Of a stretch of 64,000 nucleotides of DNA, positions 3,687 to 58,855 are shown in pieces. The stretch's first letter is position 1. Each line of letters opens with the position of its first letter. The position numbers and the translations under genes were made by a program. The notes below the pieces were generated by a model that had not been told where the DNA came from, searched no databases, and was given only the letters and a program-made list of their open reading frames with translations. Location of the stretch: contig CP154954.1 of the NCBI GenBank assembly GCA_039621445.1, forward strand, positions 40,107,572-40,171,571. The letters are read 5' to 3'. The DNA comes from Euglena gracilis. Taxonomy: Eukaryota.

Positions 3687-6600
3687 TCAGTAGTCGTCGT
3701 AGAGGACGTCCTCCCAGAAGCTGTTGGGGTTCACCATGCCCACCTTGCGGCTGCAGTTGCCGGCCCCGCCCGGCGGCCGATTGGGTTGGGGGGGCGCCTT
3801 CGGCACGCCGGGCCTCCCGGGGCGTGCCCGGACTTCGATGCCCTCCGCCGGGGGGGGGGGGGTCAGAAAAGCGTGTGAGAAAAAAAGAGAATGGGGGGCA
3901 TGGACGCCGGAACGCCAATTGACCACCACCGGGGGAAACTCGTCCCCCCCCCCCCCCCCCAGGTGCAGGTTGCTCCCGAGCACGTCCAAAGGCAGGCCAA
4001 CCCAGCAGCCGCCCGCCCACCCACAGGGGAACGCATCGCCGCCTCCCGAGGATGAGGCGGCCAGCGGGGGCTGCCGGGCGGGGGACGTGGGCGAAGGTGT
4101 GGCAGTTGTCGGTGCCAGGGATTTTTTTAAGACCAGGGGGGGTCAGCACCCACCCACCCACTCCCTGGGCCCCCCAGGGGGGAGGGGGGAGTTCCAGGGG
4201 GACCCACCCACCTTTGCCCGAAAATGGCCAAAAAAATGGCCAAAATAGCACCTTTTCAAAATTTTCAGCGCCTTTGGCGCCGAAAAAGATATACCCACCA
4301 GCCCCTCCCCCCCCCCCCCCGGGGGCCAAGGGACCCACCCACCCTACCCCCCCCGGGGGGGGGGTCCAAGACTATACCCCTGGTCGGTGTATTGCTTGAA
4401 CTCTGGGTGCTCCATCGCCCAGCACAGCAGCTCTGTAGTGGTGAGGCGCACGTCGGTGGTCGACCTGCAGCATACGGCAAGGGGGGCGTGAGGGGGGTTG
4501 GGGGCTTGGTTGAGGACCACAGTTGGGGGTCAAATCTGCGGGTCTCCGGATTCTGAACATTCTTTGTGCATGTCTTCCAGGGTTGAAGGAGAAGGAGAAG
4601 CAGGGGAAGTCTTATCACCCTTAAATTTTTTTAAAGAATGCGCCCAAAGAGACGGGCCATACCATGTAGCTCACCGTCCCCACCCCCTGCCGCTTGTTCA
4701 CAAATCACCAGCCAGTCACCGCCTTGAAACCAATCAGCAACTTCCACCCCCCCCCCGAAAGGCAGTCACTCCAGCACTCCCACCGACGCATTGATTCAAC
4801 CATATCCACTCATGGCAAATCGGAGTTGGGGTCGTTGGATCTATGTTGAAAGTGTTGAAATGATCCAATTGTCTTGAGATTGAAGAAGGAAGGTACGGGA
4901 TCAGAGTTTAAGGATCCCTGCACCCACCCTTAGGCCCTCTGGGGGGGGGGGGGGGCTGTGCGGGGGTGATCACCCCCCACGCACCACAGCACCCTGGAAG
5001 GAAAATTCCTTCGACACGGAAGGAAAATATTGAGCTAAAAAACCGGTGCCCCCAGAATGGTGGAACGTCGTGGGTTGCCCCTGCACACATGCACATCCGG
5101 TTGGTTGTGCCGCACACGGTGGCACACTGTGCACGTCCAAGCAAAAGGTGTGCCGTGCTGGAAATCCAACACGCAATCCTCTCCGAAACACTGCGCCAGT
5201 ACTCGGGGTGAACGGCTGTTCCAAAACGTTCGGGTGTGTTCCGGGGCGCAGTGGAAGAGCTCGCCTTTGACGAAGAGGGGTTGAATCCATAACAGAAGGC
5301 TTGGTGGCAGGGGAGCCACCCATGGGTTTAGAGAATCCCTGTATAACCCTGGGGGGTCAACTTTGGGGCCCAAAAAAAAATGGCGCTTTGCACCGAAATT
5401 AGAGGAACCCCCCCCCTCCGGGTAGCACCTGCCCCCCCCCCCGTGAGGCAGGGAAAAATTCAACCTCCCTGAGCTAAGAGAGTCTCTGCATGCCATGAAT
5501 ATTGATAGGAAAGGTTTGATCAAAATTGGTCATGTGAAGGACCAAACTGCCAGTCCACACTCGCAGCTCCGGAATCCATGGCAAGCACGGCGTGGCACAC
5601 TGGACGAGGTGCGGCGCTTTGCGTTGCGACAGCCGGCCGGGCCCAAACCATTTGCCCCGGCTGCGAACGGCATCATCCTGCCCGGCAAAAAGAATGCACA
5701 GAAACCACCGCAGCGAAAACAAAGAACTTATTGAGACCATGGCTGGCTTCTGCTCAAATGAAGCAGAATGAAGAGAAGGAAGGGTGTCCCCCCACCCCAC
5801 CTAAACAATGGCGGTCTGGGTCTGGGTGGGTAACTGGTTTTCGGCCCAATGCAAAGTCTCAGGCCGAAAATGAAAGTGCCATTTTGGGAGGGGGAGGGGG
5901 GCAGCTGGCTGACCCCTTGGGGAGTCCACCCAGCTGCAATGGACCCTGAGCTCAACAGAATCCATAGCTGACCCATGGCTCATTTTCGCAATTTCAGCTG
6001 GAGCAGGAGGGCCCACTGCGGCATGATATCTTGCTGATCGATCCAACGGAAATTTCCGAAATGTGAAAAGCGCCGGAAGGAAAAACTTGAACTGTTTTGG
6101 GGGGTCAGGTACCCTCCGCGTCGGTCCGGACCCCCTTGGCAGGTGGGGGGGGGGGGGCGGACACCCCCCCCGGTCTGGAGGGAGGGACACCTCCCACCTA
6201 AACCTCGCACACACCTTTTCCTTTTTTCGAACCCCCCTGCCTCTCGGCCGAATTAGGTTCCATTTTTTGACAAAAGACGAGCTGTTCGGCAACAGTGCAT
6301 CTATTCAGCTTTGAGTAAAGTTTCAAAACTTTCCATTTGATCAAGGGAAAGAAGAAGCTACGCAATCCGATGAACGCATTAACAAAGCAAATTCCTTAGC
6401 AGAAGAGGGTTGAAAGTTCTAGTAGTAGGTGTTAAAAAAAAAACTGAAAATAAATCAACAAACCTGGGGAATTGCGAAAAACGCCTCGGCAACAACATAC
6501 AGGCAACGTGCCCCCCAAACAAACAGCCAAATACCACAACAACAAGGAAAATAAATTCTCACTTTGTCAAGAAAGGATGTGTTGTCTTTCCTTTTTCGGC

Positions 6601-9600
6601 CATTTTCGGCTGAAATTGGCTGCGTACGTGCCCAAAAAACGAGCGATCTGCCCCGGCTAGAGGTCGGCGATCCTTTACCTAATTGTTGCGAAGGGCGCCG
6701 GGCAGACAGACGCAATTTGGCCTGCGGCGGGCGTGCGTAAAACGCAGCAGTTACCGCCCGGGAGGCGCAAAATAGCACGTTGGTAACGGACTCCCCAAAA
6801 AACGTCATATTTCAGCCATTTTCGGCCGAAATTGGCTGCGTCGGCACTCCAAAAACGAGCGCTCTGCCCCTGGTACGAGCCTTGGGCCACCTTCTCGGGG
6901 CCAACGGGGCAATGATCCAGCGCATCTTCCACAAAAGCATTGTGGAAGATGGCAGGTGTAGCACGCTGCATCTGAACCAACGGGGAAAAGAATGATATCG
7001 GTCGGAGGATAACCAAACAGGCTTCTTTTTGAGACCCCGGAGGGGGGTCCCCTATGCAACCGGCCTGGCACGGGCCCGCGGGGGGGGAGGGAGAGCACCC
7101 AGAAAAATCGGGCTGTCTAAAGGCATTTCCCCAAAAAGATTTTGGTGCTTTGCACCCAAAACCATACTCGGGCCTCCGGCCCCGGTCCCCCCAGGGAGTG
7201 TCAGGTCCCAGACACATCCACCCCCTGGGAAGCCTTCCAAGTTAAAAAGAAGCCCTTTAACTACATTCCAAGGCTGGTGGCAGGCACACTTTTGCTTCAA
7301 CCTGGGCAGAGAGCGGAAGCCACACGTGTCTCACAGAAGCCACACATCTCAGCTCACAGATGGCAAATCTCTCTCCCATTCCTACACTTCTCATTTTCCC
7401 AACAAAGTCCTTCAGCGGGTGTTAGGGTCCCAAGTGAGCCGTGAACACGGGGGTGCCCGTGGAAATCGGTGGGGGTGGGGGGCACATCGGGCAGACCTTC
7501 CGCTTGAAGCGGGAGATGGCCACGCCGTCCCGCCACTTCTCCAGCACGTACATCCACGTCTCCGTCTCCACCAGGATGTACCTGCGCCGCCCGATTCGAA
7601 AGGTCAGCGGCGCTGCCCCCCCCCCCCCGGCGGCTCTCCAACCAATTTGTAACCCATCGGGACAGCCATCGCGATACACTCAAGGACGGCAGCAACGATT
7701 CTTGTAAGCAGGCACGTCGAAAACGTGGAATTTCACGGGTTTCTGCCAGAACCAGGGCACCCGAAAAAAAGAGTCACATCGCCAAAAAAAAACGGAATGA
7801 GGAGCCTCACAAGCTTGCTGGTGGATACGCGCTGAATAATAACACACAGGAAGTGAAACACATACGGGTGAATGATCGGCAGGATGGGCCGGGGCTTGAT
7901 TGTCTCCTCGTACAGTGCCACGCTTTTGATGGGCTCATCCCGGTAGCGGAGGTTCATGAAATCCACCCCCCACACACCTGGGCAGGGGAAGATCACAATA
8001 AACATGAGCACATACCTGACGTTGCTCTAAAGAGAGAGATGGCATTGCTGTTTCACTGAGACAGTTGAGAATGGTGAAATAAATCTGTTGTTTGGAATGG
8101 CACCAATTGGCCTCTCCGCTTTTTTCTTTCTTCGACTGTTGGAGCACCGAACATCTGCGCCGGGAATCAGTTCAACATCGCTTCCCTTTCTGTTGGGATT
8201 ACAACAGCAATATCCATTCAACCCAATCCTTAAGATGCAAGATGGTGAAGGAAAAAAATATATTTCCCCCCATTAATTTCCAAAGCGTTTCAAGTTTCCA
8301 TCTTTGTTCCATTTCCATTTGTAGGCTGCAGCAATTGAGTAGTTTTGTCGTTGCAATTATTGCCTCCAACGTCATCATCCCCAACAGTGCCGTGCAAATT
8401 TTGTAAAAACACGCAAGCGGGAACACCTTCTGTGATGGTAAAGAAAATATCAGCTTCATACATCAACTTAATACTTATTTATTTTACCCCCGTGCTGCAA
8501 GAAACCGTTCACCAAGGGCTAGAGGCACCTGGAGACATCGTAAAAACGTGCATTGTGCGCGTTCTGCATGCTTGAGCAGATGGTATAAGAACCTGCAATT
8601 TCCCTTCTTTTGCTGGGAAGAAATTTATAATTTATAAAACTGTGATCAAATGGAATCTATTCAGGGTAAACCACCCCCCAAATAAACTGGCAGGTACCTT
8701 GCTCCTGGCGGTGGCCGAAAAACCTGGGCGGGGAGGTGGGGGGGGGGTGAAAAAAGGTGGTTCCAATAACTTGTCACCCCCCCTTTTTCCGGCAAGTTCC
8801 TTTCCTTTTCCGACCGCTTGAAAAAAGCCAATGGCCCTCGCCAGGGGGGGGGGGCGGCAATGTGGATGTTCATCGTAGTACCTCAGGTAGCCTGGAGCCA
8901 CAAAAGTCAATGCTCCTCCTCCCGCCGGAAGCAATTTCAGCAAGGGGCACGGGAGGGGATCAGAAAAAAAGAAAGGGAAGAAAAGGGGCGTCCAAAACTC
9001 AACTCGGGGAACAACCCCCTTTGTTACAACTCAGGGTGAAATGAATTACTGTGGGTCCCCTGGGAAGACAAATCGGGGTGGGCTTTCTTAGACACTGCAA
9101 ACATGCGCGAACCTACCACACGGAAAAGTATGCCCTGCCGGGAATCAGCGGAAAAAGCAAAAAAACAAAATATTGAAAATAAAAAAAGATAGGGAAAAAA
9201 ACGGAAAAAAGCAAAAGCGTCAAAAATTCCATACGTAAAAAAGCTGATACAAAAATGTCCCAGAATCACAAAAAAAAAGTTGTCAAAAATTGAAAAATGG
9301 AAAAAAACACGCCAACAAAACACTCTCACAATGGCAGAACAGAAAAGCATCATGCGCCCAAAACCTTCACCAAAAAAACAACACCATACCATCAATTTCT
9401 GAGATAAAAAAGAGTGAAAAAAAATCTAACTTCAAAAATTTCCACAAATGAAAAGCACAACACACAAAATGGCCAAAAACAAAACCTTCTGTAAATTAAA
9501 AAAAAATCACAAAAATAACAAAAAAAAAACAACCCCAAAAACCATAAGTGTGGCAAAAAATTGGTTCCGCGCTGTGAGGCAACAAGAAAAAACGGACGCC

Positions 9601-12404
9601 AGGGGGGAGGGGGGAAAAAAGACCCCACAAAAAACAAATAACCCTACCGCGTCACCCCCCGCCCGCCCCCATTGAAAAAAAAAACAGAAAAAGCACCCCG
9701 GCCCCCTTGCCCACCTCAAACCCACCCCCAAAACCTCGGTGCATCCCAGCCCCCACATCGTTGGCCCACCGCCCGCCGGGCCGGCGGTTTTACCCTGGTT
9801 GCCCATTCCCCCCCCCCGACACCCCGAAAAAAAAAGCCGGGGGGGGGGTAAGGCTCCCCAGAACCCAAGCGACCACCATACACCGACCCGAAGATCTCCT
9901 CTCGTCGAGCTGCGCCTCGGTGTCGCTGTCCGCGTCCTTCCCCTCGCCCCCCTCTGCCCGCCGCTGCCTCCGCCGCTGCTGGTCCGCCTCCGTCAGCTCC
10001 CGCAGCCGGTCCCGCACATGCTACGGGGGGGGGGGGGGCAGGCCCTGCCACCCCACAGGTGGGAGTCCCCGGCCTCGGGGGAAGGCTGTGCCACGGGGAA
10101 GGCCACAAACAAGTTTCCACCTTTGTTTCAACCTCAGAGGTGCACGGGAAAACTGGGGGGGGGTCGGACCCACCACCCACCCACCGCCCATCGGGTTTCG
10201 GGATTTCCCGTACAGCCCTGCCCTACACCTACCTACCCAACACTGCCTCACAGGCCAGCGCCGCCCCACACCTGGGCCACCGGGACGGTCGCCTCCGGCC
10301 CCTCCGTCACCGCCTTGCGGCAGAACTTTGCGCCGGCGGCGCTGCCGAGGTACCGCCGCTTCGCCCAGAAGATGACGCAGCCCCCCGCCACGATCTGCGG
10401 GGGGGGGGGCGGAGGGGCGCGGGGAGGGGGGGGGGGGCATCATTGTGCTTGCAGCTGTTCCTGGGACGCCACACACATGCAAATGAGCATTCGAGCAAAA
10501 AAAAAAGAGGCTCCAAAATCCACCCACACGTCAACAAACTGCAAAACGCTGTGTCGAGGAGGAAGGCCATGTCCACAAAAAATGATTTGTCACCGTTCCA
10601 ACAGGCAGAAATTGCAAGCTCTGCCAATTGTGTCGTTTCGTTAACCAGGTTTTGAATCGGGCTGAGCTCTTTGTTATCAAAAGCAACACGCCCGGCGGTG
10701 CGGCCCTGCAGAACGGCCACAGGGATGTATGGGAAGCCTTGGGGGGACCCCCTCCCAATAGAGGGGGGTGGGTCAGACCCCCCTCAAACCTCGAGACTGA
10801 AGGGGGCCAGGAAAATTTTCGATTTTGTGGACTGGGAAAGGGCGGATACCAGGCCAAAATTGGTATAAAAAAATCGGTGATTTTTCTTTGAAAATAAATT
10901 AAAAAAAATGCTCATTTTTCAAAAGTTTAGAACACTTTTTATGTGGGAAACACCAAAACATCAAAAATTCTGCAATATCCTCAAAAGTGAGGAAAAACAC
11001 TTTTTTGCTCACTTTCCGGCGCTGTGTGCCGGAAAAGAAAATTTGCTACTTTTGGAACCTGCCAGGGGGGGTGGGGGTCCAGACCCCCCCCCCACCTGCC
11101 TCAAAACCAAAGGGCTTCCCATCGATCCCTGCCTGGAGTGGCCTGGCAGTCCGGCCCGGCCCCACCCGGCCCGGCCCGACTACTCAGCGGAAAAATTGAT
11201 TCATTGACCCAAAAACGGCCGAGAATGGCAGAGATGGAGGGCTGCAGCACTGTTTTGCAGCGTAAACGTGCCGTATCTCGGGCCAAGTGCTTCATTTGAC
11301 GTTTCAAACGTTTTCTTTCATTTTGCGTAATTTTCGAGATATTTTGAGAATTGTGTGTTTTTTTTAGCCCATTTTCACCAAAAAACCGGACCAAAAACGG
11401 TCGAAAAACACAGCAAAAAAAAAACGGGGCTGTGGGCCAGCTATGCAGCTTCCAGGAAATCCAGGTATGGTTGGATAGGGCGTTGCACATGTTTGAATTT
11501 TTCTGTTGGGCCCTCTTTGCGACTCAGCAGCCATGGGGAGTTACTTCAAAATATGTAGTTTCTGGCTGGCAGAGAGACCCTGTTTTATAGTCCCTTTTTT
11601 GGACCTCGGCCTGTCAAAATGGGAATATCTCGTGTGGGTACAAAATTAGGATGACAAAAGGGTATCTCTGGATGCGAGGGACCGTGGGGATATTTTTCTC
11701 CAAGAAAAGTTCCCGGGGTGGGAGTCGGTTCACACCGGGAATCTTGGTTCTCCCGAGGTGGCCCCGAGAGGGGGGGGGTCAAAAGGGCCCCATGATAAGC
11801 TCTGCTCGGACATGAGCTTAGCGACCCCTCCCATATGATTGTCATCCCTACAGACTGTACGGCAAAACAATAAAAAACATTTTGGGCGAAAATGAGTGTC
11901 ATTTGGGGAAGGATCCTATTTTGTGTACACCGCATTGCCGCATTGCAAACATATTTTTCAGGATTTGGGATTTAAGCCCAGTCCCCTACACAACAAAGAC
12001 CGACAAATTACCTCTGCTGAACAAATTCAGTGCAATTCTCCCAAAATAGTACACACGAATCAGCATTGTCCACTACCAGAAAGCATGGATCACACAAACC
12101 CGGACTCGGGTTGATTATTTGGGTGGGTTTAGGGAGGGTCGCTCTGGTCCCCACTTCGCAACCTGTTTCGCCACAGAAATCCAACAGGTGGAGACGAAGA
12201 GTTGCGATGCAGCCAGGTCAGCAAACATAATTTCCGGTCAACACCGACTGCACTTGCACATACCACAGCACACCAACACCAGGATTAGGGGGAGAAAAGA
12301 TCAGAGGCACTGCCCACAGATAACGGCAAAACCCCTGCAAATCAGCGCAGTCCCGTCCCCGGGGGCAACCCATCGCAAAGGCGCACCTCGACGCCGCCAA
12401 ACAT
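3687..12404 (-). CDS. Multi-exon gene, ~240 aa, permuted papain-like/NlpC-P60 (PPPDE/LRAT-like) putative cysteine hydrolase
   Basis: Exons: 12387-12404, 10272-10394, 9888-10020, 7866-7977, 7497-7581, 5601-5677, 4386-4464, 4087-4110, 3687-3758 (723 nt, all phases consistent). Six GT-AG introns and two stem-defined introns. The C-terminal part reads ...PIIHPYILVETETWMYVLEKWRDG...ELLCWAMEHPEFKQYTDNCHTFAHNCSRK...DDY*, a His-before-NC layout typical of permuted papain-like enzymes. The first exon (MFGGVE) is the least certain. Confidence 0.72.
3759..4086 (-). other. Non-canonical ('intermediate', GT start but no AG) stem-defined intron
   Basis: The +4 arm CCCCGCCCGGCAGCC pairs 14/15 with GGCCGCCGGGCGGGG ending at -6. 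Junctions are C|G...C|A. Removal joins FAH|NCSRK in frame with the terminal exon. Confidence 0.75.
4111..4385 (-). other. Non-canonical intron formed by a MITE (4116-4382) with an 8-bp TSD
   Basis: Reads C|GAC CAGGG...CCCTG GCACC|GAC. Flanks on the + strand are GTCGGTGC (4108-4115) and GTCGGTGT (4383-4390). The 275-nt length is frame-breaking. Removal restores KQYT|DNCHTF. The body is colinear with MITEs at 20168-20430 and ~56270-56524. Confidence 0.88.
7018..7257. mobile_element. Degenerate CAGGCTTCTTTTT-ended MITE
   Basis: Ends CAGGCTTCTTTTT / AAAAAGAAGCC. Flanks TAACCAAA / TAACTACA. Confidence 0.55.
10720..11131. mobile_element. MITE (family E)
   Basis: TIR CAGGGATnnATGGGAAGCC at both ends. 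Related copies at 61489-62021 and ~45653-46000. The TSD is not preserved here. Confidence 0.75.
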
Positions 12405-14651: not shown

Positions 14652-14778
14652 CAGGGTTCGATATAAGGACAGGTGGGGGGGGGTGGTCCGGACCCCCCCC
14701 TGCGGGCCAGGAGGGGGGGGGGGTGGGGGGGACACCCCCCCACCTAAACCATATACGCCCTCCTTATATCGAACCCTG
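14652..14778. mobile_element. Short internally deleted family-B MITE
   Basis: Same 18-bp TIR as 48634-49034. Flanks GCCCCCCC / CCCCCCCC. Confidence 0.82.
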
Positions 14779-14902
14779 CCCCCCCCCCTCCGGTTGGAAG
14801 CGTCGGTCCACCAAAAAGACGCCCTCCACCGTGGGAGGGGGAGGGGGAGGGAGAGGGTTGTGGCAAGCTGAGTGCGCAGCATGGCCTACCTGCCTGCCTC
14901 CG

Positions 14903-15617
14903 CTACCCCTCAACGCTGCCTTCCGGCGCTGCCCAGGCCCAAGCCGGCCCATCCGGCGTGGTGAGGGCAGCCCCAGGGCACTGAGAGACCCCATGGCTGG
15001 GACCCATGGCCGGCGTTTGGCGTCAAAGAAGACACTTGTGATGCCCTTTAGCACAATTTCCAGCGTGCATCTTCCGTTCATCCCCTGGGGCGGCGGGGGG
15101 GGGGGGGGGCTTCTTCCCAAACTCCCCCACCCACTTTTTTTCTCTTAAAAAAAACAACAACCCCATGCACAACCCCAGAGGGGGGGGGGTCCACCCATCC
15201 ACCGTGAACTGGGAAAAAACCCAAGGGGGGTCCTTTGGAAAATCCAACACCCACTCACCACCTATCCAAACCCCACCCAAAATCGGCCAAAAGGGCATAG
15301 AAAAAATCAAGCTGGATTTTCTGCCCAGCCTTCGGCCGCAGCGGACTAACCCATGTCACCCCAACACCTGGTGGGGGGTAGCGGCCCCAACCACCCGCCC
15401 ACTCTCAAAACCCGCCAGGGGAGAGGTCAGTACACTTTGAGTGAATCTGTGTTCCCAGCATGGCTGATCCATATCAAGCACAAGCCCCAGTGCTCTGTGT
15501 GTGTTTTCGAGCACGTTCGAGGAGGCTCGAGAGCCTCCTCCTACGGAGCCAACTCCTACCGTAACCCTGCTGCTGACATTTGGCTTTGCTGTATATTTGC
15601 TGTATATAACAACCCAA

Positions 15618-15651
<34 letters not shown>

Positions 15652-15844
15652 ATGGATGGATGGATGGATGGATGGATGGATGGATGGATGGATGGATGGA
15701 TGGATGGATGGATGGATGGATGGATGGATGGATGGATGGATGGATGGATGGATGGATGGATGGATGGATGGATGGATGGATGGATGGATGGATGGATGGA
15801 TGGATGGATAGATGGATGGATGGATGGATGGATGGATAGATGTG

Positions 15845-15897
<53 letters not shown>

Positions 15898-18800: not shown

Positions 18801-21800
18801 CGCCGGAGGCGGTCGCCGGATGGACGGCAAACGCGGCATTTCAACAGTTGTTCTTTCCCCCAAAAATTGCAATGCTCCCACAAAGCCCAGGTGGGGTCGT
18901 TCCGTCCGGCCCACACATCCCGAAGACCGCTTGCCAATGGTGGACTTGGTGTGGAACAAAACCTGCACCCAATGTACGGTTTCGCTTTTGAACGTCAGGC
19001 ACTGGCATATTTTGGGGTTGCCCCCGGGGACCGAGCAGAGCAGCCAGTTGTTGTCCTCCGGGTGGGGCACTGCCACGCCGCTCCACGACACAGCCTGCTG
19101 GCGCAGCGACGTCAGCGTGAACGTCCACACCTGCGGCGGGCCAGAGAATGCCCCAGGAAACAATGAGGCCTGCCATGACTTGAACCCCACAGTGACACAT
19201 CCAAACGGTGCCACCTTTTTGCAGCTGCCCATGCTTATGCTGGGCAGGGGAAAAAATGTTTTGTGAGCAGCCATGGGGAACGATGAAGGCGTTTGAAATG
19301 GAGGCACATGGAACAGGCCGAAATTACAACCCCGGAGGGGAGGAGGGGGATCCCAGCCCAAAAATGGCCTTTTCTGGGCTTCCGGCTCCTTGGCCAAGTG
19401 CCCAGGCACTTTGGCCATGTACCCCCCCCCTTGGTTGCACTAACAGCGCTAGCTTCACTTCTGGCCCAGTTTGCTGTGTGGTGAGTGGCCAGGTGCCCCT
19501 TACACCAGTGCTCTTGTGTTGCTCCACCAGGCCGGGTGAGCAACTCTGGTCCTCATGTCCTGAGGAAAGGCAAGGGGAAGGCCTGAAGCATCAAAGGCCC
19601 CAGGAGGGGGAGAACCCAGCAAAGCCAAGCCCAGAAAGAATCAGGGCCAGCAGGCCCCCTCTGCCCAGGAAGGGCAAGCCAGACCCAAGATTGATCTGGG
19701 GAGAGAGCCCCCAGCTGAGCCAAGGGAAAAGGGTAAGTCCTCAGCTGACCGCTGCCCGGATGTCATCTCCAGACTGGCAAGGGCTTCTGGAAGGAGTGGC
19801 ATGGCCCTCACCACATTCCCCCCCAGAGCAGTGGGTGAAAGGCATCATTCAGGGGCTGGAATTCAGAGAACTGGCATGGCAGGGAGTGCCATTGTTGCGG
19901 AGATTGAGGAAATGTCTGCCATGGTGGCAGAAAAATGACACCCAGTGGGTGGTATCCCTGATTCAAAATGGGGTTCAGCCAGACCACCCCTTACCCCAGT
20001 TTCTGTCAAGACAGCAACAAAAGTCAGCTCAGGAAATCAGCCTGGCTTCAGAAATCCTGAAGGGGGTACCAAGAAAGTGGGGCAACCAAGAAATTGGAAA
20101 CTGCCACAGGGACTGTCCACTTGGTACCCTGGTTTGTGTTGTCAAAACCAGAAGGAGACCACCCCACCAGGGGGTTTTTTTAAGACTGGGGAGGAGGGCC
20201 CCTCCCACCCACCTACCCCCCTGGGCCCCCGGGGGGGGGGGGGGTCCCGGGGGGGGACCCACAAAAAATCGCGAAAAAAGCTAAAAATAGCGCCTTTTCA
20301 AAAATTTTCGGCCGAAAAAATATATCCCACCCCCCTCTGGGGGGACCCCCCCCCCCCGGGGGGCTGGGGCTCAGCCGGACCCACCCACCCTACCCCCCCC
20401 CCGGGGTCCACGACTAAAAAAAAATCCCTGTCCCCCACACAACCGACAGTGAAACCTCTTGGGTTTGCCAGTCAAGAGACACAAAATTGTCAGATGGAGA
20501 ATCAAACAGGATGCTGGTTATGGTGCCAGAAAATAAGGTCAATGCCAACAGAATAAACCAAAAGATTGCAGCGATTAAAAGCATGCAAAGTCTACCATCA
20601 GACAACCAATTAGGAACGTTGCAAGAACACATAATGACCTGTGAGCTTCAACGCAACACAAACAAATGCAAATTCGGAGTGCAAGAGCCCCCCGAGGCGC
20701 AAACGGTGGCCATCTACGTCCCCGAGGACACACCTCCTCAAACCGGTCGCCGCTCAGCCCCGTGGCCTGCCGGGCCGCCGTCTTCAGGAACTGGCTCGGC
20801 AGGGCGGCCCGGGCCAGCGGCGCCCCCCGCGCCAGCTGCCCGCACGCGTTGTCCACCAGGTGGGCCAGCACGCTGCCGCCAGGGCCGGCGGGGGGGGGGG
20901 GGTGGCCGTGCCGTCGAGGGGGACTGCTCCGAGCAGTTCGGCAGCAACGCGGGAAACGGTGGGTGTGAGTTGACCCGCCGATCCAAACGCAGAGGAGGGG
21001 ACCCTGTGCCTGCCCCGCCCGGCCCTGCCCCTCCATCGCCAGCTCACTGTCCTCCGCGAGGGCCGCGTCGGGCAGGCAGGGGAGCTTGTCTTGGAACGGC
21101 CCCAGGGCCCCGGCCACGGGGCCCGGCCCGCCCCTGGCGACGGAGGAGCCCCCACAGAAGCCGCGGCGGGCGTTGACGGCGCCGCCCGACCGACCCGGTA
21201 GTACTTGCCGGGAAGAAATGGGACCGTCAGGGGGGGCCCCACCACCCATCCCCCACGCGGCCACCGGGATCCCCATCCAGCCCTGCCCCGAGGGCCTGGG
21301 GCCAGGGGAGGGAGAGGATCCAAATGGCGTGGGTCCGGCAAATGCGTGGGACGGCCCCGCCCCGCCCCAGCCCATGTGCCGGGGAGCGGGGCTGAAGCGG
21401 AGGGAGGCCGGGCCAAAAGGGGAAAATGGGCCAAACCGTACACAGTAAACACGGGATGGTGTTGCTGTCAGAAGGGAAAAAATTCGGCATTTTCATGGGA
21501 ATGTGCGGAACCCGCACGCACAACCCTCGAACCCTCGGGGTTTTGGGATCCAGTGGGGTGGAGGGCTGGGGGGGGTGATTTTTTGTGGCGGTTTTAATGT
21601 GTTTTGAGGTAATAGTCTGTAACTAGCCCAAGGCTATTGTGTCCAAAAAATGTATTTTTTTGTCCCACTAGAGGTGTAAACCACAGATTTTGTTATAACC
21701 AAAGGAGGGGGAGGGGGGGTCCCCCCAGGCGGGGGGGGTCAGGGGGAAGAAAATCCCCCCTCGTAAGGTGTCAGGTAAGGTGGGGTGCCTTGCCTGACCA

Positions 21801-23365
21801 AGGTGTCGCTCAACAACCTCGGGGGGGGGGGGTCCAGCTCAGAAGGCTGGAAAATCTAGGCTGGCCGGAAAAAGGCTGCTGGCTGATCCCCCCATAGGGT
21901 CCCCCAGCTGGTGCTGGACCCAAATGGGGCCAAAAAAAATTGAAATTGAAGGAAAAAAAACTCCACCGCTGCTAATTATGAAAAAGAACTGGCCAGCCCT
22001 TGAACTGCCCAGCCCTTTCCCCACCCATTTCTGCCCATTTCCAGCCCATTTATTGCAGAGCAGCGGAAAATAAATATTATCGATGGGGGGGGAGGGTCCG
22101 GGGCTGGAAACAGGCTGCTGGTTGAGAAAAGGCTGCTGTTTGCTGCTGGTCGGAAAAAGGCGGGTTGTTTTTTCTACCAACAATTCTCATATGATTCAAT
22201 GCTTCAATTCATCCGACAGCAAAACGTTGTGGTATTTCAGGTTGTTTTTTTTTCTGGGCTTACCATCTCCTGATTTTTTGAAAGATGCATCAGTTTGCAT
22301 GTTGTCCTTGTGAAGGGGGGGTGGCAAAGTATTGTCTTCGGCCTTCTCCCCTGCAGAATTCTTTGGGCATGCAATGCTTCAGGGCAATGCAAAGTTATTT
22401 GGGGGGTTTTATAAACCGGGGATTTTTCAAAGCTTGGGCCCCGGGACGCGGGATATCAATGCAGTATCTATGCAGGTCTGGGGGTTCGGCCGGGCTGGGC
22501 GGGGTACAGGAAGGGGGGGGAGGCTGCTCGGGACACTGCATCGAAAACTGCTGCGTTGTCTCAAGGTTTGGGGACGGGGCTTGTTTTGAGGGTGGGAACG
22601 GTCCGGGGCCCTGGCCACCACGCAGGGGACGCAGCGGTCGCCGATGCGCTTGCTGCGCGGCTTGCACGCCAGGAGGCCGAGCTGGCACTCCCCCTCCGGG
22701 TCGCACGGGATCCGGCCGGGGCCGATCAGCAACACACCCCATTGGCGCCGGATCTGTTTCGCTCCACCCGCTCTCCAGCAACCTTGCCCATATCGTAAAA
22801 TCCCCTCTGTTGTTGGGACAGGGGAGGTGACCAGGTGGAAATAGACCAATCCGGGGGGAGGGGAGTCTCGGTGCCTGCCTGGTCGTGGGCCAAAAAGTGC
22901 CCCAAAAAAAACTCTGGGCTTCCGGCGCTGTAGGCGCCGGAAGTGCCTTGGCCAAGTGCCCAGGCACTCTTGGCCATGTGCCCCTGCCCCCCCCACAGGG
23001 GGGGTCAGATCTGGGTGCCTTGGAGTGCCTGCCCAGGCACCCCCCCCCCCCCCCCCCCGGGGGGGGGCGGGCCCACCACGGGGCTTTTGGGAAAAATTCA
23101 GCCTGGAGGTGACAACTGTTCCAGTTTGTTTGGTGCAAGGTAGCGTTGCGCCTGATTTCTCATCACTTACTGACCCCCGGTCCACTTTCAAAAACTCAGC
23201 CGGACACCGTTTGAGAACAAACCATTCACTAGTGACCCACACCGCTGAGAAGTCGGCCACCTCAAAATGGTCAAATCCATCGGGGTGGGAAATGAGCATC
23301 CATACATATCAAGATCTATCTCTGTATCTCTATCTATATCTACATCCATATCCATATCCATATCC

Positions 23366-23399
<34 letters not shown>

Positions 23400-26300
23400 C
23401 TACATCTACATCTGCATCTATATCTATATGTTGCTCTTTTTAAAAAAAATCATTCACCCTTTGGCAAAAGGTTGGGGGCTGCTTTGGGCGGGGCCTGGCC
23501 GACTACAACATGTATCATCATGGACTCACTCAGGGGGGGGGGGGCAGCCAGTCAAAATGGTTGCCTGGGCGGGTCGGGCCCCGGGCACAGCCACCCTCCG
23601 GGGCTGCCCCGGAGCTGCAATAGCGGGGACGGCCCCACCACCAGCCCACGAGGAGGAGGACGAGGCCCAAGGCAGCAGCCCGCCGCCAGGGGAAGCCCCT
23701 TTGAAGGGGGGGGGGGGCGAACACACGCGCTCTTTTTTTGCGGTTTTTTTTGCACTTTTCGTCATGTATAAAACAAAAAATTTAGCGGGTTCTTATGAAT
23801 TTTTGCGGGTTTTTTTTTGTGATTTTTTTGGCGATTTTGCTGGAATTTTTTTATTCTGAAAAACTCCTCATCTTTTGGCTCCAATTTCCCCCCGAGACCA
23901 AAATTCTTGTCATTTTTTTTGTGAATGCTTTTGCATTTTTGGGTCAGAAAGTTGCATATTATTTTGTACAATGAAAACTCCTCCAATGCAGAGGTAAAAA
24001 ATTATCTCCGTCTTCTCCAGCAGACAATGTGCATCCTGGGGGACCTCCTACGGGATTTAACTTGCAACTTGCGTGTTTTTTTTTGCATTTTTGTGTGTTT
24101 TTTTTGTGTCGTGCTTTTCGAGGGTCACTGTTGCATATCCCCCCCGCTTCAAACTACCGGATGTGTGGGAATGGGTGTAAACAGTCACCAGGTATATGTG
24201 TGGATGTGATCAGGTTGTCGGTTTGTCATAATTTGCGGCAAGTGTTTATTCTACCCGAATTAGCAGAATGATGGTAATTTTTAGGTGAAAAGGGGGGGTT
24301 GGGGGCATGATTTTTGTGGCGAAATGTCTCGATGCCCGAAAATTAGCTGTGGCAAAACTGGCAGCCAGTCCCCGGGACAAGGTTTTCTGGGCTTCCCACC
24401 CTCAAGAATATCTGTCAACCCCATCATGGTCTGCTCAGCGGAATGATGGCAAGTTTTAGGAGAAACGAGGGCTTTGGGTTTCTTTGCTTGTAGAATCCCC
24501 CGTGGGATGCTTGATTTGGCGCCCAGAATGAACCCCATATTTGAGGCGCAAAAAACATAGCCCCCCATCAAAATACAAATGCACGGTGTTGATGAGAATC
24601 CATAAAAACGTTGCTTGACATTGATTTTTCATCACCTGCAAATTGGGGCATATTTAAATGTACTCGAAAAACTTTACATGTGGTGCAATCAGGGTTTGAT
24701 GTAAGGACAGGTGGGGGGGGCGGTCCGGACCCCCCTCCTGCGGGCCAGGGGGGGGGGGGGGGGCTGGGGGGGACACCCCCCCCACCTAAACAGTGGCGCG
24801 GTCCGGGTGACCGAAATTTTTTGACCCCCCAAAACGACCAAAAGTGCAATTTTGGGCACTTTTGGGCAAAAATTTGCCAAAAATGCAAAAAAAAATCGAC
24901 GCGAAGCGCCGGAGGAAAAAATTGACCCTGTTGGGGGGGTCCCGGGTACCCCCCCCAGGGACCCCCCCCTGCGGGCCAGGAGGGGGGGGGTGGGGGGACA
25001 CCCCCCACCTAAACCCCGTACGCCCTCCTCATATCAAACCCTGGGTGCAATACTTAGAAAAAACGCAGCCTTTTTCCAATTTTCCAGCCTTTCCCCTGAG
25101 GCACGACTGAACTAAAATTGGCCAAACATGAGGACAAAAGCCTGACCCAGGCCCTATCCATGACGACGGCCCATCCTTTTCTCACTCAGTATCCCGAAAA
25201 AAACATAAATCTGGCAAGTCAGGGATTTTTGGTATACCCGCCCAGACTCGGGTGCCGATTTGTGTTTTGTACTTTCCGGGCCCAAGGTGGCTAATCCCCC
25301 ATCTTAATAGTGGTCCCAAACCTCTGGGGCACTAATGTCAGGCGTCCAATCAGGTTTGTTCAAAATTTCATTTAGGGGTGGGAATATTCAGCGTTACTAC
25401 ACTCAGGAGGGCCTGAAATGGCCATTTCGAGGGGGAGATCAGCAGAGTTGGCCTCGGCCGAAACCAAAGCCGACCCCCCCCCTGTTTTGCTTGCTATGGA
25501 CAGGCAACCCATTGCACAAGCCACCCCCAAAGGGTTCAAAAGAATCTTGGTCCAGACCCCCACCACCTAAACAGACCACAATGACCCATTTTTCAGCCGA
25601 ACAATGTTGACCCCCAAGATTGCCAATTATACAATTTGAGCACCTTTGATGGGATGTTCTTAAATTTGCAAAACTGCCAGCAATTTTTTGGGGTCCAGGT
25701 ACCCCCCCAGGTGAAAGAATAACTCTGGAACTTCCAGCGACTTTGTACTGACAATTACCAAGAAAAAATTCAGCATGACAAATTCAAGCCATTTTTGGCA
25801 TCCTATCATTTTGTATGTGCCTGAGATGCCTTGCTGATGCAGTGTTCGAGGACGTATCTGTGGCCAAACAAATATGATCATCCACACCAGCAGCCAGGAA
25901 CGAATGGTCCATGAACAGCTGCGCTTTACGGCCTTACCGTTTGCTATGAAACTTTCATTTAAGGCAATCAGGGTTTTCAGGAATTTCGGGAAATTTTTTC
26001 TTCCAGTTTATTTAGGCTCGTTTGGGACCTAAATACCTGCCCCCCCCCCTGCCGGCTCCAGTTCCTTTATTTGAAATAAAATCAGCACTGAGGCCCTGTA
26101 ATGACCACACATGCACACCACCAGGGCTTTGTCTGCTCCTGAAAAAAAAGAACCAACAACGAAATCTTTCCTTCCAATAATGCATCTATGCAGGGTGATA
26201 ATCTCACTCTCTGATTTTCACCCCCCCCCCGCACACTTTCTTTTTTGCCACGGCTTCCTCAAACCAGAGTGCAAAGGAGAGGTTCCAAACAAAGTCACCA

Positions 26301-29300
26301 ACCAGTCCAACAATGCAACGACTGCGAGCGACCGTGCGTGTTGAAGAGCAGTTAATCCGCATGGGGAACGACCAACCAACAGAGGGGCTTGGCCAGGACC
26401 ACCACGAGGGCAGCAACGCGAGCAAGCACCACTTCCCTCCATATGCATGGGAGAAGGGTTGTGGAATCTGCTGTCCGCTTCAGGTACGGCCAAGGCGACG
26501 GATGGCTGGAACAAAAATCGAGCATCGTTGCCCATTGGGCTGGTGCTTGTGCAATGACGAAGGAAGTGGGATGGCCTTTGAAGGCGGCAGCTTGACAGTG
26601 GAGGCCAGAGGTGGTGTGGAGGACTGTTGGGTGGGCTGGACTGCGGAGGAGAGGGATGGTAGTCAAGGAAGCGCCAAAAAGTGGCTCTGGACGGTTTTTG
26701 CTTTGTTTCCAGGTGCCCACCAGGTAGGTCCATCCCAGCAGCGGGCTGGACTTCCAGTCAGTTTCTTTCCTTTCCAGTTGCGTGGTTGTACCCCCCCCCA
26801 CAAAGTTCTGAAAAAACCTCCGCCAGTGACCCCGTTTTCGAACGGTTCGGCTCACCCCAGCTGTGGTTGGCCAACCTTTCGTACAGCAGACCGCCAGAGG
26901 AGGATCCCACACCCCGGCGGAGCTGCTGGCTGGAAGAAAAAAAAACAACGATGTGCTGGCTGGGGTGTGGTCCCCCCCGGCTGCAAACATTGGGGAGGTG
27001 TGTTTGCGGGCATGTGCATGTGCGTGTGTGTGTGTGTTATCGTGGGTGGGTGGGACCCCCACGTGGGCAGGCGATCGGAGGCATTCCCGCGGGCCCCCGG
27101 CCCCGGCCCAGCCCCGGCGGGTGGTGGGGCGCAGGCTGGCCGGCTCCCGCGGCGCAGCGGCCGGGGCGGGGCGGGGCGGGGCGGCCTTGGTGGGGGCCGC
27201 CGCCCGGAAGGGGGAGGCCCACTGGCTGGACGGCTGCCGCGCCCGGCTGGGGTGTGTGCGGGGGGACCCCCGGCCCCTGGCCGTGGGGGCAGTTCCGGGG
27301 AAGGCTGCCTCCCCTCCCCAAACCTTCCACCCCATGTTCATGAGGTAACCGATGGAAGGTTTCCAAACAAACACGTTTGGGGTTGTGTACCCCGGATGCA
27401 TCTGGTGACACTTGCTCTGAGGCACCCTGAATGGCAAAGTCCCTGCTTCCATCTCCCCGTCCCGGGGCACCAGATCACATTTTGCCGTGCTTGGGTTTTT
27501 GGGATTTTGATTATTCTTTTTTGCCAAAAAACCCAAAGTGGCATTTTGGATCCATTTTTCGGGAACTTTTTGGTCACTTTGGCTGTGCCACTATTTAGGT
27601 GGGGGTGGTGTTCCTCCCCCCACTGAGCGAAAGGGGGTGGGGCTGGAGCTGCCCCACCTGCCCTTGATATCGAATGCTGCTCCCAAATTGGGAGCAGCAT
27701 CCCAATTTTGAATTTGTGAGAACCCAATGATTGGTGTAAATGCGCAAATGAACCATTTGCACAAATCTGTGAACGGGCCACATGTGCAAGCTGAGATTGG
27801 TGCGTTGTGAAATTCCACAAACAACATTGGTTTGCACAATGCGCAAATAGTCTGTTTGGTCGGTTGCGCATCTGCACACTGACCACTTGTGCAACTTAAC
27901 ACACATACCATTTAGAGGTATGTTGTCCGCAGTTGAGCCTGTGAAAAACAATTTTTGATCCTCAAAATAAATGGTATTTCTGGGTTGTATAAATTTAACG
28001 GTGACCTTTACCCCCCCCCAGCATTTTAGTCTGAAAATGAGGCACAGTACATTGGCTGGAAATGGATGTGTCAACTGAGTTGAAAATCTTGGTGTTGGAG
28101 GCCATATAAGACAATGCCGTGACATGCTTTATTTGACCTTCTCGGACGCACAGCACCTCCACTTTGAGCACAACAACTCCGCAGGCTGCTCTCCTCCTTC
28201 TCATCTTGTCTCGATTGTAACAGCTTCAAAATTAAAACAAAACTTTGGTCCATTTGCGAAATGGAGCACAATCAACCATCAGAATATGAAATGACGTGTG
28301 GGGAGGGGGGGGAGGCGGACTGGAGTTTTGCGTATTGGTGGATGGATGGATGGATGGGTGGTTGGATGGGTGGAAGGAAGGATGGACGGACGGATGGATG
28401 GATGGACGGACGGATGGATGGATGGATGGATGGATGGATGGATCTGTATATGTGCATCTGTATGCCAAAAATACACGAGAAGCCCGGTCCTTGCTCTTGC
28501 ATATACTTCACTTTGGAGAGGTCAGCGGGTTTCACAACTCAGCGACGAGTTTCAGAGGGTCAAAACAAATTTGTGTTCCTGAGGATGTTTACCACCAGAA
28601 AATAAACAAATGGAGGGACGGTGTGTCACAAACAGTTCAAAAACCTGGACCCCAACCCTTCAAAACAAAAATGCTCAAGTTACGCCACCTAAGCCCTTGG
28701 CAGGTGGGGGGGGGGGGTCGAACTTCCCCTACGGTAGGGAGCACGCCCTACCAAAAGCCATGACAAACTCCTTCCATCAAAGGGAGCGGAATGCAATCCA
28801 AGGTTCACCTCAACACCATTGGGCTTTCCCCAAAGGGGGCCACAGACCTTCAGGGCCCCGACACCCTGATGGAACCCGCCCCAGGGGAAAATGCAAGCAA
28901 AAGACGACTTTCCGGAACAAAATGCGGAAGTGGGTTGAAACCTGAAATACCCGCGGGGGACAACGGGAGAAACATCCCTTTTAGGGACGAAAAGCTTGGC
29001 CACCCACCACTTGCCTACCCCCCCCCACAGGCAGTGACAGCGGCAGCGGGGCGCGGGCCGCGCTGCCGAGGCGCTCCACGAGGCCGGAGAAGAACGGCGG
29101 CGACCGCAGGCCGAGGCCGGGGGACGGGCAGACGTCGCCGTCGGAGGGGGACGGCGACAGGGCTGGTGGGCTGGGGGCAGCACCGCGAGGACCAGACACG
29201 GTGCAGGCTTCCCTGTGGGGGGCTTGAAGGCAGATATGACGGGACGATGTGAATTATTTTAACTTCGCACGTTCCAATTCTACTCAAACACACCCACACC

Positions 29301-29849
29301 CACACCCACACCCACCCATACCGTTCTTGGGTGTGTCCTTATAAACTCCCTACTGATGACCTCCCCCACTTATAACCCCCCTCGTGGAGAAAAATGAAAA
29401 GCACTGGTGATGATTTTTTCGGTCGCAAAACGCCCAAAACTGATTTGGAAATTCTTATGAGACCAACCATCATCAAAAATGCCATTTCTGATAAATTTTG
29501 TCAAAAACATCCAATTTGGGGGTTCCCAGCTCCTGCCAACACCGACCGGGGCCTTCCCGATGCTCCTCGAATCCGGTGGAGTACAATGTCTCAAGCCCTT
29601 CTTTTCGGGCAACAAATGCTCAGACGGCCAGGCATGGGGGTGGGGGGATGCGTGCGCGCCGTGAGACCAGTGCTGGGCGGAGAAGTCCGGCGGGCTGGCG
29701 CTGTCAGCGGGGCCATCCCGGCGGTACCGCTTGGGGGAGTGCCCGCCCTCCCCCTCCGTCTCCGCCTCCTCCTCCTCCTCCGCCTCGTCCTCCTCCAAGT
29801 CACGCTTCAGCCCGTTGGCGGGCTCGTCGTCCAGATCCATCCGGGACAT
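14903..29849 (-). CDS. MAN1/Src1/Heh1-like inner nuclear membrane protein (MSC domain: TM1, Cys-rich lumenal domain, TM2, winged helix), ~435 aa
   Basis: Exons: 29679-29849, 29060-29172, 27095-27231, 23587-23681, 22617-22711, 21031-21097, 20734-20874, 19037-19130, 18754-18804, 17732-17816, 17234-17266, 16859-16955, 16339-16407, 14903-14962 (1308 nt). Acidic/Pro-rich N-terminus. TM1 [15 protein letters not shown]. Cys-rich segment [36 protein letters not shown]2 [22 protein letters not shown]-terminus [29 protein letters not shown]. Three GT-AG introns and ten stem-defined introns. Confidence 0.8.
14963..16338 (-). other. Non-canonical stem-defined intron
   Basis: Reads AAC CAGCCCCGGG...CCCTGGGGCTG CCCTC. 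Joins [17 protein letters not shown], giving the terminal WxW of the MSC winged helix followed by a stop. Confidence 0.8.
15619..15893. repeat. Compound microsatellite (TA)n-(GATG)n-(TG)n
   Basis: Directly visible in the sequence. Confidence 0.97.
16956..17233 (-). other. Non-canonical intron, offset variant (4+5 or 3+6 flanks)
   Basis: Stem CAGGCCTTTGCTGG / CCATCAAAGGTCTG. The in-frame join TRFL|IEVVL needs 9 flanking nt rather than 8, so the exact junction is uncertain. Confidence 0.6.
17817..18753 (-). other. Non-canonical stem-defined intron containing nested MITEs
   Basis: Perfect 14-bp inverted repeat CAGGGGACGCCGGC (17822-17835 / 18737-18750) at +4/-6. Joins [12 protein letters not shown] in frame before TM2. 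Confidence 0.85.
18805..19036 (-). other. Non-canonical stem-defined intron (CGG/CCG stem)
   Basis: Reads T|GCT CGGTCCCCGG...CCGGCGACCG CCTCC|G (stem 9/10). Joins NNWLL-W-RMPLS in frame. Confidence 0.75.
19760..20160 (+). pseudogene. DIRS/Ngaro-like retrotransposon reverse transcriptase N-terminal fragment
   Basis: Reads [31 protein letters not shown], then a +1 frameshift into [18 protein letters not shown]. Cut off by the MITE at 20168. Recognised by motif only. Confidence 0.5.
20168..20430. mobile_element. MITE (family D), the same family as the 4116-4382 intron
   Basis: Ends CAGGGGGTTTTTTTAAGAC / AAAAAATCCCTG. Shared core AAAATAGC(A/G)CCTTTTCAAAA..CCGAAAAA..GACCCACCCACCCTACCCC. Flanks CACCCCAC / TCCCCCAC. 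Confidence 0.8.
20875..21030 (-). other. Non-canonical stem-defined intron
   Basis: Reads GGG CAGGGCCGGGCGGGG...CCCCGCCGGCCCTG GCGGC. Joins ELAME|SVLAH in frame, whereas the nearby GT/AG pair would frameshift. Confidence 0.8.
21098..22616 (-). other. Non-canonical stem-defined intron
   Basis: Perfect 11-bp inverted repeat CAGGGCCCCGG (21103-21113 / 22603-22613). Junctions are T|G...C|G. Joins [16 protein letters not shown]. Confidence 0.85.
22712..23586 (-). other. Non-canonical stem-defined intron (CGG/CCG stem)
   Basis: Reads T|GCC CGGGGCCCGA...TCGGCCCCG GCCGG|A. Joins GGC|IPCD, restoring the CxPC motif. Confidence 0.8.
23682..27094 (-). other. Tentative non-canonical intron (imperfect stem, 3.4 kb)
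   Basis: Reads GCC CGCGGGAATGCCTC...GGGGCTTCCCCTG GCGGC and gives the in-frame join AGAG-G-AAALG. Additional hidden exons cannot be excluded. Confidence 0.45.
24690..25043. mobile_element. hAT-like MITE (family B) inside a non-canonical intron
   Basis: TIR CAGGGTTTGAT/ATCAAACCCTG and perfect TSD GGTGCAAT. Colinear with 48634-49034. Confidence 0.9.
27232..29059 (-). other. Non-canonical stem-defined intron (CCG/CGG stem)
   Basis: Reads C|GGC CCGCGCCCCGCTG...CAGCCGGGCGCGG CAGCC|G (stem 12/13). Joins LGS-A-SSQW in frame. Confidence 0.75.
28340..28443. repeat. (GATG/GACG)n microsatellite
   Basis: Directly visible in the sequence. Confidence 0.95.
29173..29678 (-). other. Non-canonical stem-defined intron
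   Basis: Reads C|GCC CAGCACTG...CGGTGCTG CCCCC|A. Joins PPDFS|SPPAL in frame. Confidence 0.7.

Positions 29850-31994: not shown

Positions 31995-58855
<26,861 letters not shown>

Follow-up and report, generated by a model that had tools for sequence, protein, structure and literature searches.

Two genes and their introns

We analysed a 64,000-nucleotide (nt) stretch of Euglena gracilis DNA from contig CP154954.1 (called here the window, whose positions are used throughout). This DNA was G+C-rich and contained long G and C runs. Positions 3687-29849 comprised two nuclear genes, A and B, both on the minus strand. An earlier note on the sequence had described a stem pattern across this span; the span held two genes rather than one, and 9 of their 23 introns were ordinary GT-AG introns without stems. 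The other 14 had no GT-AG ends, and we consider it very probable that they were euglenid nonconventional introns, whose two ends paired with each other so that the end of the helix placed both cuts.

29849-14903, minus strand: coding span of gene A, with 16 exons, 15 introns and a product of 462 amino acids (aa); stop codon at 14905-14903
12404-3687, minus strand: coding span of gene B, with 10 exons and 9 introns, matching the protein P0002; stop codon at 3689-3687

The nonconventional introns are given below with their ends written as 5' spacer, 5' triplet, 3' triplet and 3' spacer, followed by the first base of the next exon. Helix lengths are in base pairs (bp), and raw reads are those of RNA run X21. 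Four of these introns (A2, A6, A10 and B8) had been named in the earlier note for their triplets other than CAG.

29173-29678, minus strand: A1, GCC-CAG...CTG-CCCCC, then A; 8-bp helix; junction from the protein P0001; 3 placements, one of which fitted spacers of 3 and 5 nt
27232-29059, minus strand: A2, GGC-CCG...CGG-CAGCC, then G; 8-bp helix, all GC; boundaries slid 1 nt either way (three placements), and only the placement of the earlier note gave paired triplets
26629-27118, minus strand: A3, GCCG-GGG...CCC-ACCC, then A; 9-bp helix; spacers 4/4; direct repeat CCACCC (6 nt); joint 26628>27119, 2 raw reads; none of 7 placements gave spacers 3/5
26418-26552, minus strand: A4, GCA-CAA...TTG-CTCGC, then G; 9-bp helix; joint 26416>26552, 8 raw reads
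23687-26393, minus strand: A5, GCC-AAG...CTT-CCCCTG, then G; 8-bp helix; spacers 3/6; direct repeat CCTGGC (6 nt); joint 23684>26392, 11 raw reads
22712-23586, minus strand: A6, GCC-CGG...CCG-GCCGG, then A; 7-bp helix; unique boundaries; joint 22711>23587, 10 raw reads
21098-22616, minus strand: A7, GGC-CAG...CTG-GGGCC, then G; 11-bp helix; joint 21096>22616, 12 raw reads
20875-21030, minus strand: A8, GGG-CAG...CTG-GCGGC, then A; 9-bp helix; unique boundaries; joint 20874>21031, 12 raw reads
18805-19036, minus strand: A10, GCT-CGG...CCG-CCTCC, then G; 5-bp helix followed, past a C.C mismatch, by 4 more Watson-Crick pairs; joint 18803>19036, 9 raw reads, sliding freedom 1; only the placement of the earlier note paired the triplets
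17817-18753, minus strand: A11, GGC-CAG...CTG-GGGCG, then G; 14-bp helix; joint 17815>18753, 16 raw reads
16955-17232, minus strand: A13, CCG-CAG...CTG-CTTCGA, then A; 10-bp helix including one G.U pair; spacers 3/6, alternatively 4/5; joint 16954>17233, 19 raw reads
14963-16338, minus strand: A15, AAC-CAG...CTG-CCCTC, then A; 10-bp helix
4111-4385, minus strand: B7, GAC-CAG...CTG-GCACC, then G; 7-bp helix; direct repeat CACCGAC (7 nt); junction from P0002, 8 equivalent placements
3759-4086, minus strand: B8, GTC-CCC...GGG-CCGGC, then A; 11-bp helix; starts with GT and ends with GC; junction from P0002, 2 placements

The conventional introns of the same genes were the following.

19131-20733, minus strand: GT-AG intron A9, GTGTGT...CCGCAG; joint 19125>20729; helix 0-2 bp
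17267-17731, minus strand: GT-AG intron A12; joint 17264>17730; helix 0 bp
16408-16858, minus strand: GT-AG intron A14; joint 16404>16856; helix 0 bp
10395-12386, 10021-10271, ~7979-9883, 7582-7865, 5678-7496 and 4465-5600, minus strand: six GT-AG-type introns of gene B, from protein mapping; helix 0-3 bp in the five measured

Use of the junctions in transcripts

The comparison with reads and contigs covered 15900-28330 and drew on contigs of runs X1, X2 and X4 and on raw reads of run X21 (recorded as RNA-seq). Gene A was represented by one spliced contig in each of the three contig runs as well as by raw reads. Twelve joints were each found in one contig of each contig run, and the same 12 occurred in the raw RNA-seq reads with 2-29 reads each; nine of them removed the nonconventional introns A3-A8, A10, A11 and A13. 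Two contig loose ends mapped uniquely to the next exons: the one at 27232 (a single row in run X4) continued at 29061-29090 and gave the removal of A2, and the one at 16338 continued at 14932-14961 and gave that of A15. The base shared by the two ends of A15 lay in the mRNA, as indicated by the 67-letter aligned side at 16338, and the intron was therefore placed at 14963-16338.

The remaining nonconventional junctions (A1, B7 and B8) came from two transcript-derived proteins that matched the exons at 96-100%. Their shared label EG_transcript occurs along with Euglena gracilis in 10 papers of a literature listing, the transcriptome paper among them, and the window was accordingly read as nuclear DNA of this species. 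P0001 (eukprot EG_transcript_53968, 115 aa) corresponded to the first 115 aa of gene A with 1 mismatch (S versus A); the predicted first exon (29679-29849, minus strand) matched it at 100%, and it also spanned the A2 joint. P0002 (eukprot EG_transcript_16500, 242 aa) was found through the last exon of gene B (3690-3758). All gene B junctions, including those of B7 and B8, were taken from the exact mapping of its blocks, with every placement that reproduced the protein listed. Eight blocks of 7-41 aa and a 6-aa start block, taken as exon 1, mapped exactly on the minus strand, and the remaining 8 residues fell within an indel region of the gene.

At 12 of the 14 nonconventional junctions the boundaries could slide by 1-7 nt, and there the placement that fitted the rule described below was chosen; the two introns that could not slide, A6 and A8, fitted it without any choice. 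The conventional junctions slid by 2-7 nt because (C)AG followed by GT stood at both ends. Sliding of this kind, together with the tendency of hairpins to favour template switching, would fit joints that were artefacts, produced when reverse transcriptase switched templates or when sequences were aligned over hairpins with short direct repeats. We regard this explanation as extremely improbable. Two junctions had no repeat at all, and the spliced contigs had depths of 77, 161 and 183-208 against 2-5 for the unspliced pieces seen at some junctions in the same runs. The reading frame of gene A was open for 462 codons through all joints, and only once all 15 introns had been removed. Moreover, in Nomura 2025 (PMC12501133) an E. 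gracilis exon received introns that were natural, mutated or synthetic, and knock-in introns restored a cellular phenotype.

Terminal helices, spacers and purines

All 14 nonconventional introns could form a contiguous helix of 5-14 bp (G.U pairs counted) that began at about +4 and -6, compared with 0-3 bp in each of the 8 conventional introns measured; the intron at ~7979-9883 was left out of this count because its junction was ambiguous by 1 nt. In the four introns of the earlier note the contiguous helix ran from +4 over 11 bp (B8), 5 bp (A10), 7 bp (A6) and 8 bp (A2). At spacers of 3 nt (5') and 5 or 6 nt (3'), a helix of at least 5 bp was present in 13 of the 14 nonconventional and in none of the 8 conventional introns (Fisher 2.8e-5). 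Random pseudo-introns of the same strand reached at least 5 bp in 2.4% of 200,000 trials (binomial 1e-20), and when this null was multiplied by 8, the largest number of placements, the p value was still ~5e-9. The observation is real and lies far beyond chance.

Seven introns had CAG/CTG as their outer triplets and two had CGG/CCG, while CCG/CGG, CCC/GGG, CAA/TTG, AAG/CTT and GGG/CCC each occurred once. The 42 pairs in these triplets were all of the Watson-Crick type, with three pair types at each position. Positions +4 to +6 paired exactly with -8 to -6 in 11 introns, whose spacers were 3/5; in two (3/6) the 3' triplet stood at -9 to -7, and one had spacers of 4/4, so that the 5' spacer was 3 nt in 13 of the 14 and the 3' spacer 5 or 6 nt in 13 of the 14.

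These results supported much of what the earlier note had proposed. The four introns that it had named were found at their coordinates on the minus strand with the proposed triplets at +4 to +6 and the complement at -8 to -6. It had named the absence of non-CAG junctions from transcripts as the observation that would speak against it; the junctions of A6, A10 and A2 were present in RNA and that of B8 in protein. Its 3-nt and 5-nt overhangs described 11 of the 14 introns, the others being 3/6 twice and 4/4 once. The statement that every intron began with a purine held for 13 of the 14 with one exception, and a purine opened the downstream exon after all 14 nonconventional introns but not after the conventional intron 10021-10271, where the exon started with C. 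CAG had been described as the triplet at +4 in most introns, and this was too generous, as it stood there in half of the 14.

The duplex formed by the two intron ends had a mean energy of -25.8 kcal/mol when each end was combined with its own partner and of -16.6 kcal/mol when partners were swapped among the 14; the conventional introns ranged from -3.9 to -16.0. The exon flanks showed no such difference between nonconventional (0.8 to -8.0) and conventional introns (0.8 to -7.1). In the two short introns A4 and A8 the terminal helix was part of the minimum free energy and centroid folds. Within the first ten helix positions there were 6 G.U pairs and 2 A.C mismatches, counts that did not settle whether pairing had been selected at the level of RNA.

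The published code and the introns outside it

The stem-ended pattern is what publications describe as typical of euglenid nonconventional introns; it was already known, and the window added nothing new in kind. In Milanowski 2016 (PMC4770533) the most conserved elements were the pairing nucleotides +4, +5, +6 and -8, -7, -6, at which complementarity rather than sequence was kept. CAG/CTG was present in 33 of 55 introns, 51 of the 55 had a purine at their 5' end, every downstream exon opened with one, and homologous introns of different strains showed compensatory changes. Terminal pairing has also been described genome-wide in E. gracilis (PMC11170887).

The sequence limits of this pattern were defined genetically in the knock-in assay of PMC12501133. 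Splicing was lost with any single substitution in CAG or CTG, with a donor spacer altered by 1 nt, and when the complementarity behind the triplets was removed; the acceptor spacer tolerated an additional nucleotide and, weakly, the loss of one. A purine was preferred as the first base of the downstream exon. Introns with CGG-CCG and CGG-CTG were spliced, and among the variants that preserved pairing at the middle position only CTG-CAG worked, which is why the outer C and G were kept fixed in the published code. That code, 5'-N3CDG-/-CH'GN5-6 followed by a purine (R), fitted 61.2% of the nonconventional introns of E. agilis, and 38.8% did not conform to it.

Nine of the 14 introns in our set agreed with the code, and A2, A3, A4, A5 and B8 did not. 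A2 had C at the middle position of CCG/CGG, which the code excludes, and its spliced junction was given by the contig loose end and by P0001. A3, A4 and A5 were joined at the level of reads in the same transcripts as CAG/CTG introns, and B8 was shown by the transcript-derived protein only. The strength of the helix was alike in the introns that fitted the code and in those that did not (means of about -25.6 and -26.1 kcal/mol). Five natural introns that lay outside the genetically defined code and were spliced nevertheless were a slightly new and small addition from the window.

The central claim of the earlier note, that position and pairing mattered and not sequence, has to be divided accordingly. 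Its first part was borne out by the window and by the published genetics, including the effect of a 1-nt change in the donor spacer. The phrase "not sequence" was too strong in view of the single substitutions in CAG or CTG, all of which abolished splicing, and of the single compensatory middle variant that worked (PMC12501133).

Proposed mechanism of intron removal

In the mechanism that we propose, the intron ends would pair in the pre-mRNA, with 3 nt left before the helix at the 5' end and 5 nt, in some introns 6, left after it at the 3' end. An activity that is probably not the U1/U2 spliceosome would read the end of this helix and place both cuts, the 3' cut falling just before a purine. 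Cutting by a helix-positioned endonuclease would presumably be followed by ligation, the exons would be joined, and the intron would leave as a full-length circle. The outer pairs preferred by such an activity would be C:G, A:U and G:C. RNase III cuts within duplex RNA, and since the cuts here lay outside the helix, cutting of the RNase III type fits poorly. The exon flanks paired no better than those of conventional introns, so that there was no bulge-helix-bulge geometry.

A scheme of endonuclease and ligase fits the reported excision products: PMC11282704, on the basis of Guminska et al. 2021, describes them as circles of full length that have no lariat form. The same idea had been put forward in the earlier note; it was already a published hypothesis and is unproven. 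PMC12621601 puts forward three mechanisms: RNase III acting with a ligase, machinery that derives from tRNA splicing, and the classical spliceosome. The experiments suggested in the earlier note (stem and spacer mutants, covariation, lariat versus circle) had essentially been carried out in the literature.

The third of these mechanisms would mean that the ordinary spliceosome removed the 14 introns and that the terminal helix merely juxtaposed poorly defined splice sites, as in other lineages whose introns are mostly non-GT-AG. The spliceosome did act on these transcripts, as the same genes held 9 GT-AG introns, and B8 started with GT. However, the GT-AG pair was absent from all 14 introns in every placement that gave the same mRNA or protein, B8 having GT at its 5' end only. 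The conventional introns started with GTGTG or GTATG and ended in a C-rich tract followed by CAG, which matched the E. gracilis consensus of PMC11170887. The U2-type signature (GT/GC-AG, the GTGTG 5' motif and a pyrimidine tract) was found in 8 introns. At ~7979-9883 each end looked conventional, but GT and AG together could not yield P0002 and were off by 1 nt. The 14 lacked this signature: none combined GT with AG, and they had neither the GTGTG motif nor the C-rich tract before CAG. The loss of splicing after single-base changes in the triplets or 1-nt changes in the donor spacer (PMC12501133) and the circular products without lariat form (PMC11282704) also spoke against removal by the spliceosome, and we consider it unlikely. 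A search of the whole window against Rfam at the gathering score gave 0 matches, whether to self-splicing group I or group II introns or to other curated RNA families.

Several points weighed against removal guided by the terminal helix. The outer triplets of 5 of the 14 introns (CCG/CGG, CCC/GGG, CAA/TTG, AAG/CTT and GGG/CCC) broke the CDG/CH'G code, and 3 of the 14 stems were off the exact 3/5 spacing (A3 with 4/4, A5 and A13 with 3/6). The whole-intron folding energies of A4 and A8 were no better than those of shuffled sequences (z -0.48 and +1.66); only the terminal helix stood out in intron folding. Three of the four runs were only guessed to be RNA, the joints were examined in RNA-type runs only, and B7 and B8 were supported at the protein level only (P0002). 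Finally, no back-joined circle was among the 15 joints listed, and 213 further joints existed.

Intron B7 as a copy of a dispersed element

Intron B7 aligned nearly end to end with two other places in the window, one of them inside the conventional intron A9.

20166-20425, minus strand: B7-type repeat copy inside A9; blastn 69% identity over 277 nt, E 8e-25; ends GGA-CAG...CTG-GTGGG, then G
56255-56526, plus strand: third B7-type repeat copy, outside the span of genes A and B; blastn 73% identity over 173-255 nt, E 3e-18 to 4e-35

The B7-type element was 260-275 bp long and had inverted termini, (GGGT)n, G and C runs and an AT-rich centre. Its inverted terminus was about 19 nt long and started with CAGGG in the A9 copy, and only about 6 nt of it were still paired in B7. 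There were 9 occurrences of the element's 3' terminal motif in the window, where 0.18 would be expected. Direct repeats of at least 6 nt flanked the junctions of 3 of the 14 introns, compared with 0.3% in the null (p 1e-5). The membership of B7 in a dispersed family with inverted repeats supports the hypothesis of a MITE-like origin (MITE: miniature inverted-repeat transposable element). In 9 papers found on Euglena, MITEs and nonconventional introns, no such dispersed family was claimed in the title or the opening of the abstract. In a separate observation, the copy in A9, with its N3-CAG...CTG-N5 ends followed by G, could be excised as a nonconventional intron nested in A9; the joints listed included none for it.

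The triplets may co-vary because the pair is required or because a parent transposon passed on both members with its inverted repeats. The introns compared here were not homologous to each other, and if each had arisen from the inverted repeat of its own transposon, then complementary ends would come free. It could therefore be argued that the complementary triplets were a fingerprint of ancestry only and that their covariation was uninformative about the machinery, a question that was explicitly raised in PMC4770533. B7 would agree with this view, being a copy of an inverted-ended element of about 270 bp, flanked by a direct repeat of 7 nt, and having two other copies in the window, as would the excess of the end motif and of the junction repeats, and the fact that G.U pairs were not clearly commoner than A.C mismatches. 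On the other hand, ancestry and function are not mutually exclusive, the mutagenesis of PMC12501133 showed a need for the triplets, for the spacers and for the helix behind the triplets, and homologous introns of different strains carried compensatory changes (PMC4770533). We give the view that ancestry alone explains the triplets little credence.

Since the covariation may be inherited and the comparison of G.U with A.C was indecisive, it is the published mutagenesis, together with the compensatory changes between homologous introns (Milanowski 2016), that carries the functional claim, and not the window. From the window came the use of the junctions in RNA, the potential to form the helix, the spacers and the purine rule. 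Others, in the work cited above, had shown that triplet, spacers, purine and helix are all required and that the products are circular.

Taken with the five introns outside the code, the B7-type family allows a tentative extension of helix-guided removal, which we see as possible but on the whole rather doubtful. The identity of the triplet at the end of the helix might be free in vivo, and the machinery might read geometry only, namely the helix end, the single-stranded spacers of 3 nt and 5-6 nt, and the purine. What appears as the CAG/CTG "code" would in that case be the end of the inverted repeat in the dominant MITE-like family, to which B7 belongs.

Products and other features of the two genes

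The full-length product of gene A (462 aa) had no match in the database, where the protein collection contained its first 115 aa only, and a protein search with its longest exon (48 aa) gave no match either. The predicted protein was acidic at its N-terminus, had stretches rich in proline and serine, and contained two hydrophobic segments. Pfam recognised 0 families in P0001 and P0002. A language-model search for look-alikes of P0002 gave a best score of 0.91 with unnamed clusters, which were weak leads only. In one look-alike cluster, at a score of 0.88, an LRAT domain was present in 24% of the members, also a weak lead. The C-terminal NCHTF motif of P0002 resembles the catalytic NCEHF box of the LRAT family.

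In a GAG-rich stretch (~9880-9910, minus strand), exon 3 of gene B was one base short relative to P0002, which caused a frameshift. This could be an assembly indel, a difference between alleles or paralogues, or a sign of a decaying copy.

Three intronic regions of gene A (19220-19634, 22955-23369 and 24615-25029) had an RNA depth 10 to 100 times that of the exons, and they look like high-copy transcribed repeats. A joint between 23040 and 24748, on opposite strands, was found in 1025 raw reads and had poly-C and poly-G flanks. Two (ATGG)n microsatellites were present, one of about 49 units at 15648-15842 in intron A15 and one of about 26 units at 28339-28443 in intron A2.

Significance and comparison with known systems

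As a discovery, the pattern carried little weight, because the triplets, the spacers, the purine rule, the circles and the idea of an endonuclease with a ligase were all in print. The use of the window lay in a clean set of introns verified by transcripts, in which 14 nonconventional introns stood next to 9 conventional ones in two genes. In addition, the membership of B7 in a repeat family gave direct support to the hypothesis of a transposon origin, which the papers cited here argue mainly from inverted ends, PMC11282704 and PMC12501133 reasoning from these ends together with junction repeats.

Compared with the euglenid nonconventional introns described by Milanowski (2014, 2016) and Nomura (2025), the present introns were alike in their non-GT-AG borders, in the pairing of +4 to +6 with -8 to -6, and in the prevalence of CAG/CTG, with CGG/CCG as a known derivative. 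They also shared the spacers of 3 nt and 5-6 nt, the downstream purine, the junctional direct repeats and the presence of GT-AG introns in the same gene. There was no difference of kind, except that five of the introns here lay outside the genetically defined code.

The bulge-helix-bulge introns of tRNA and archaeal genes are cut by a splicing endonuclease and joined by a ligase; RNA structure and not sequence sets their sites, and the excised intron becomes a circle. The likeness to our introns lay in the cut sites set by structure and in the circular intron, and the analogy with tRNA has been drawn in PMC12621601. In contrast, a bulge-helix-bulge has two 3-nt bulges around a 4-bp helix with further helices on the exon side, whereas here spacers of 3 nt and 5-6 nt stood outside a helix internal to the intron. 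The introns of hemistasiid diplonemids were also without GT-AG ends, and extensive pairing of their ends brought the splice sites together; they belong to another lineage, and the passages considered from PMC12621601 state no CAG/CTG triplet at fixed spacers for them. Finally, transposon-derived introns such as introners and MITE-derived introns (PMC11282704) shared with ours the terminal inverted repeats and the junction repeats resembling target sites, and B7 was itself a copy of a dispersed element. The transposon-derived introns of other lineages are removed by the spliceosome, however, whereas the euglenid introns leave as circles.

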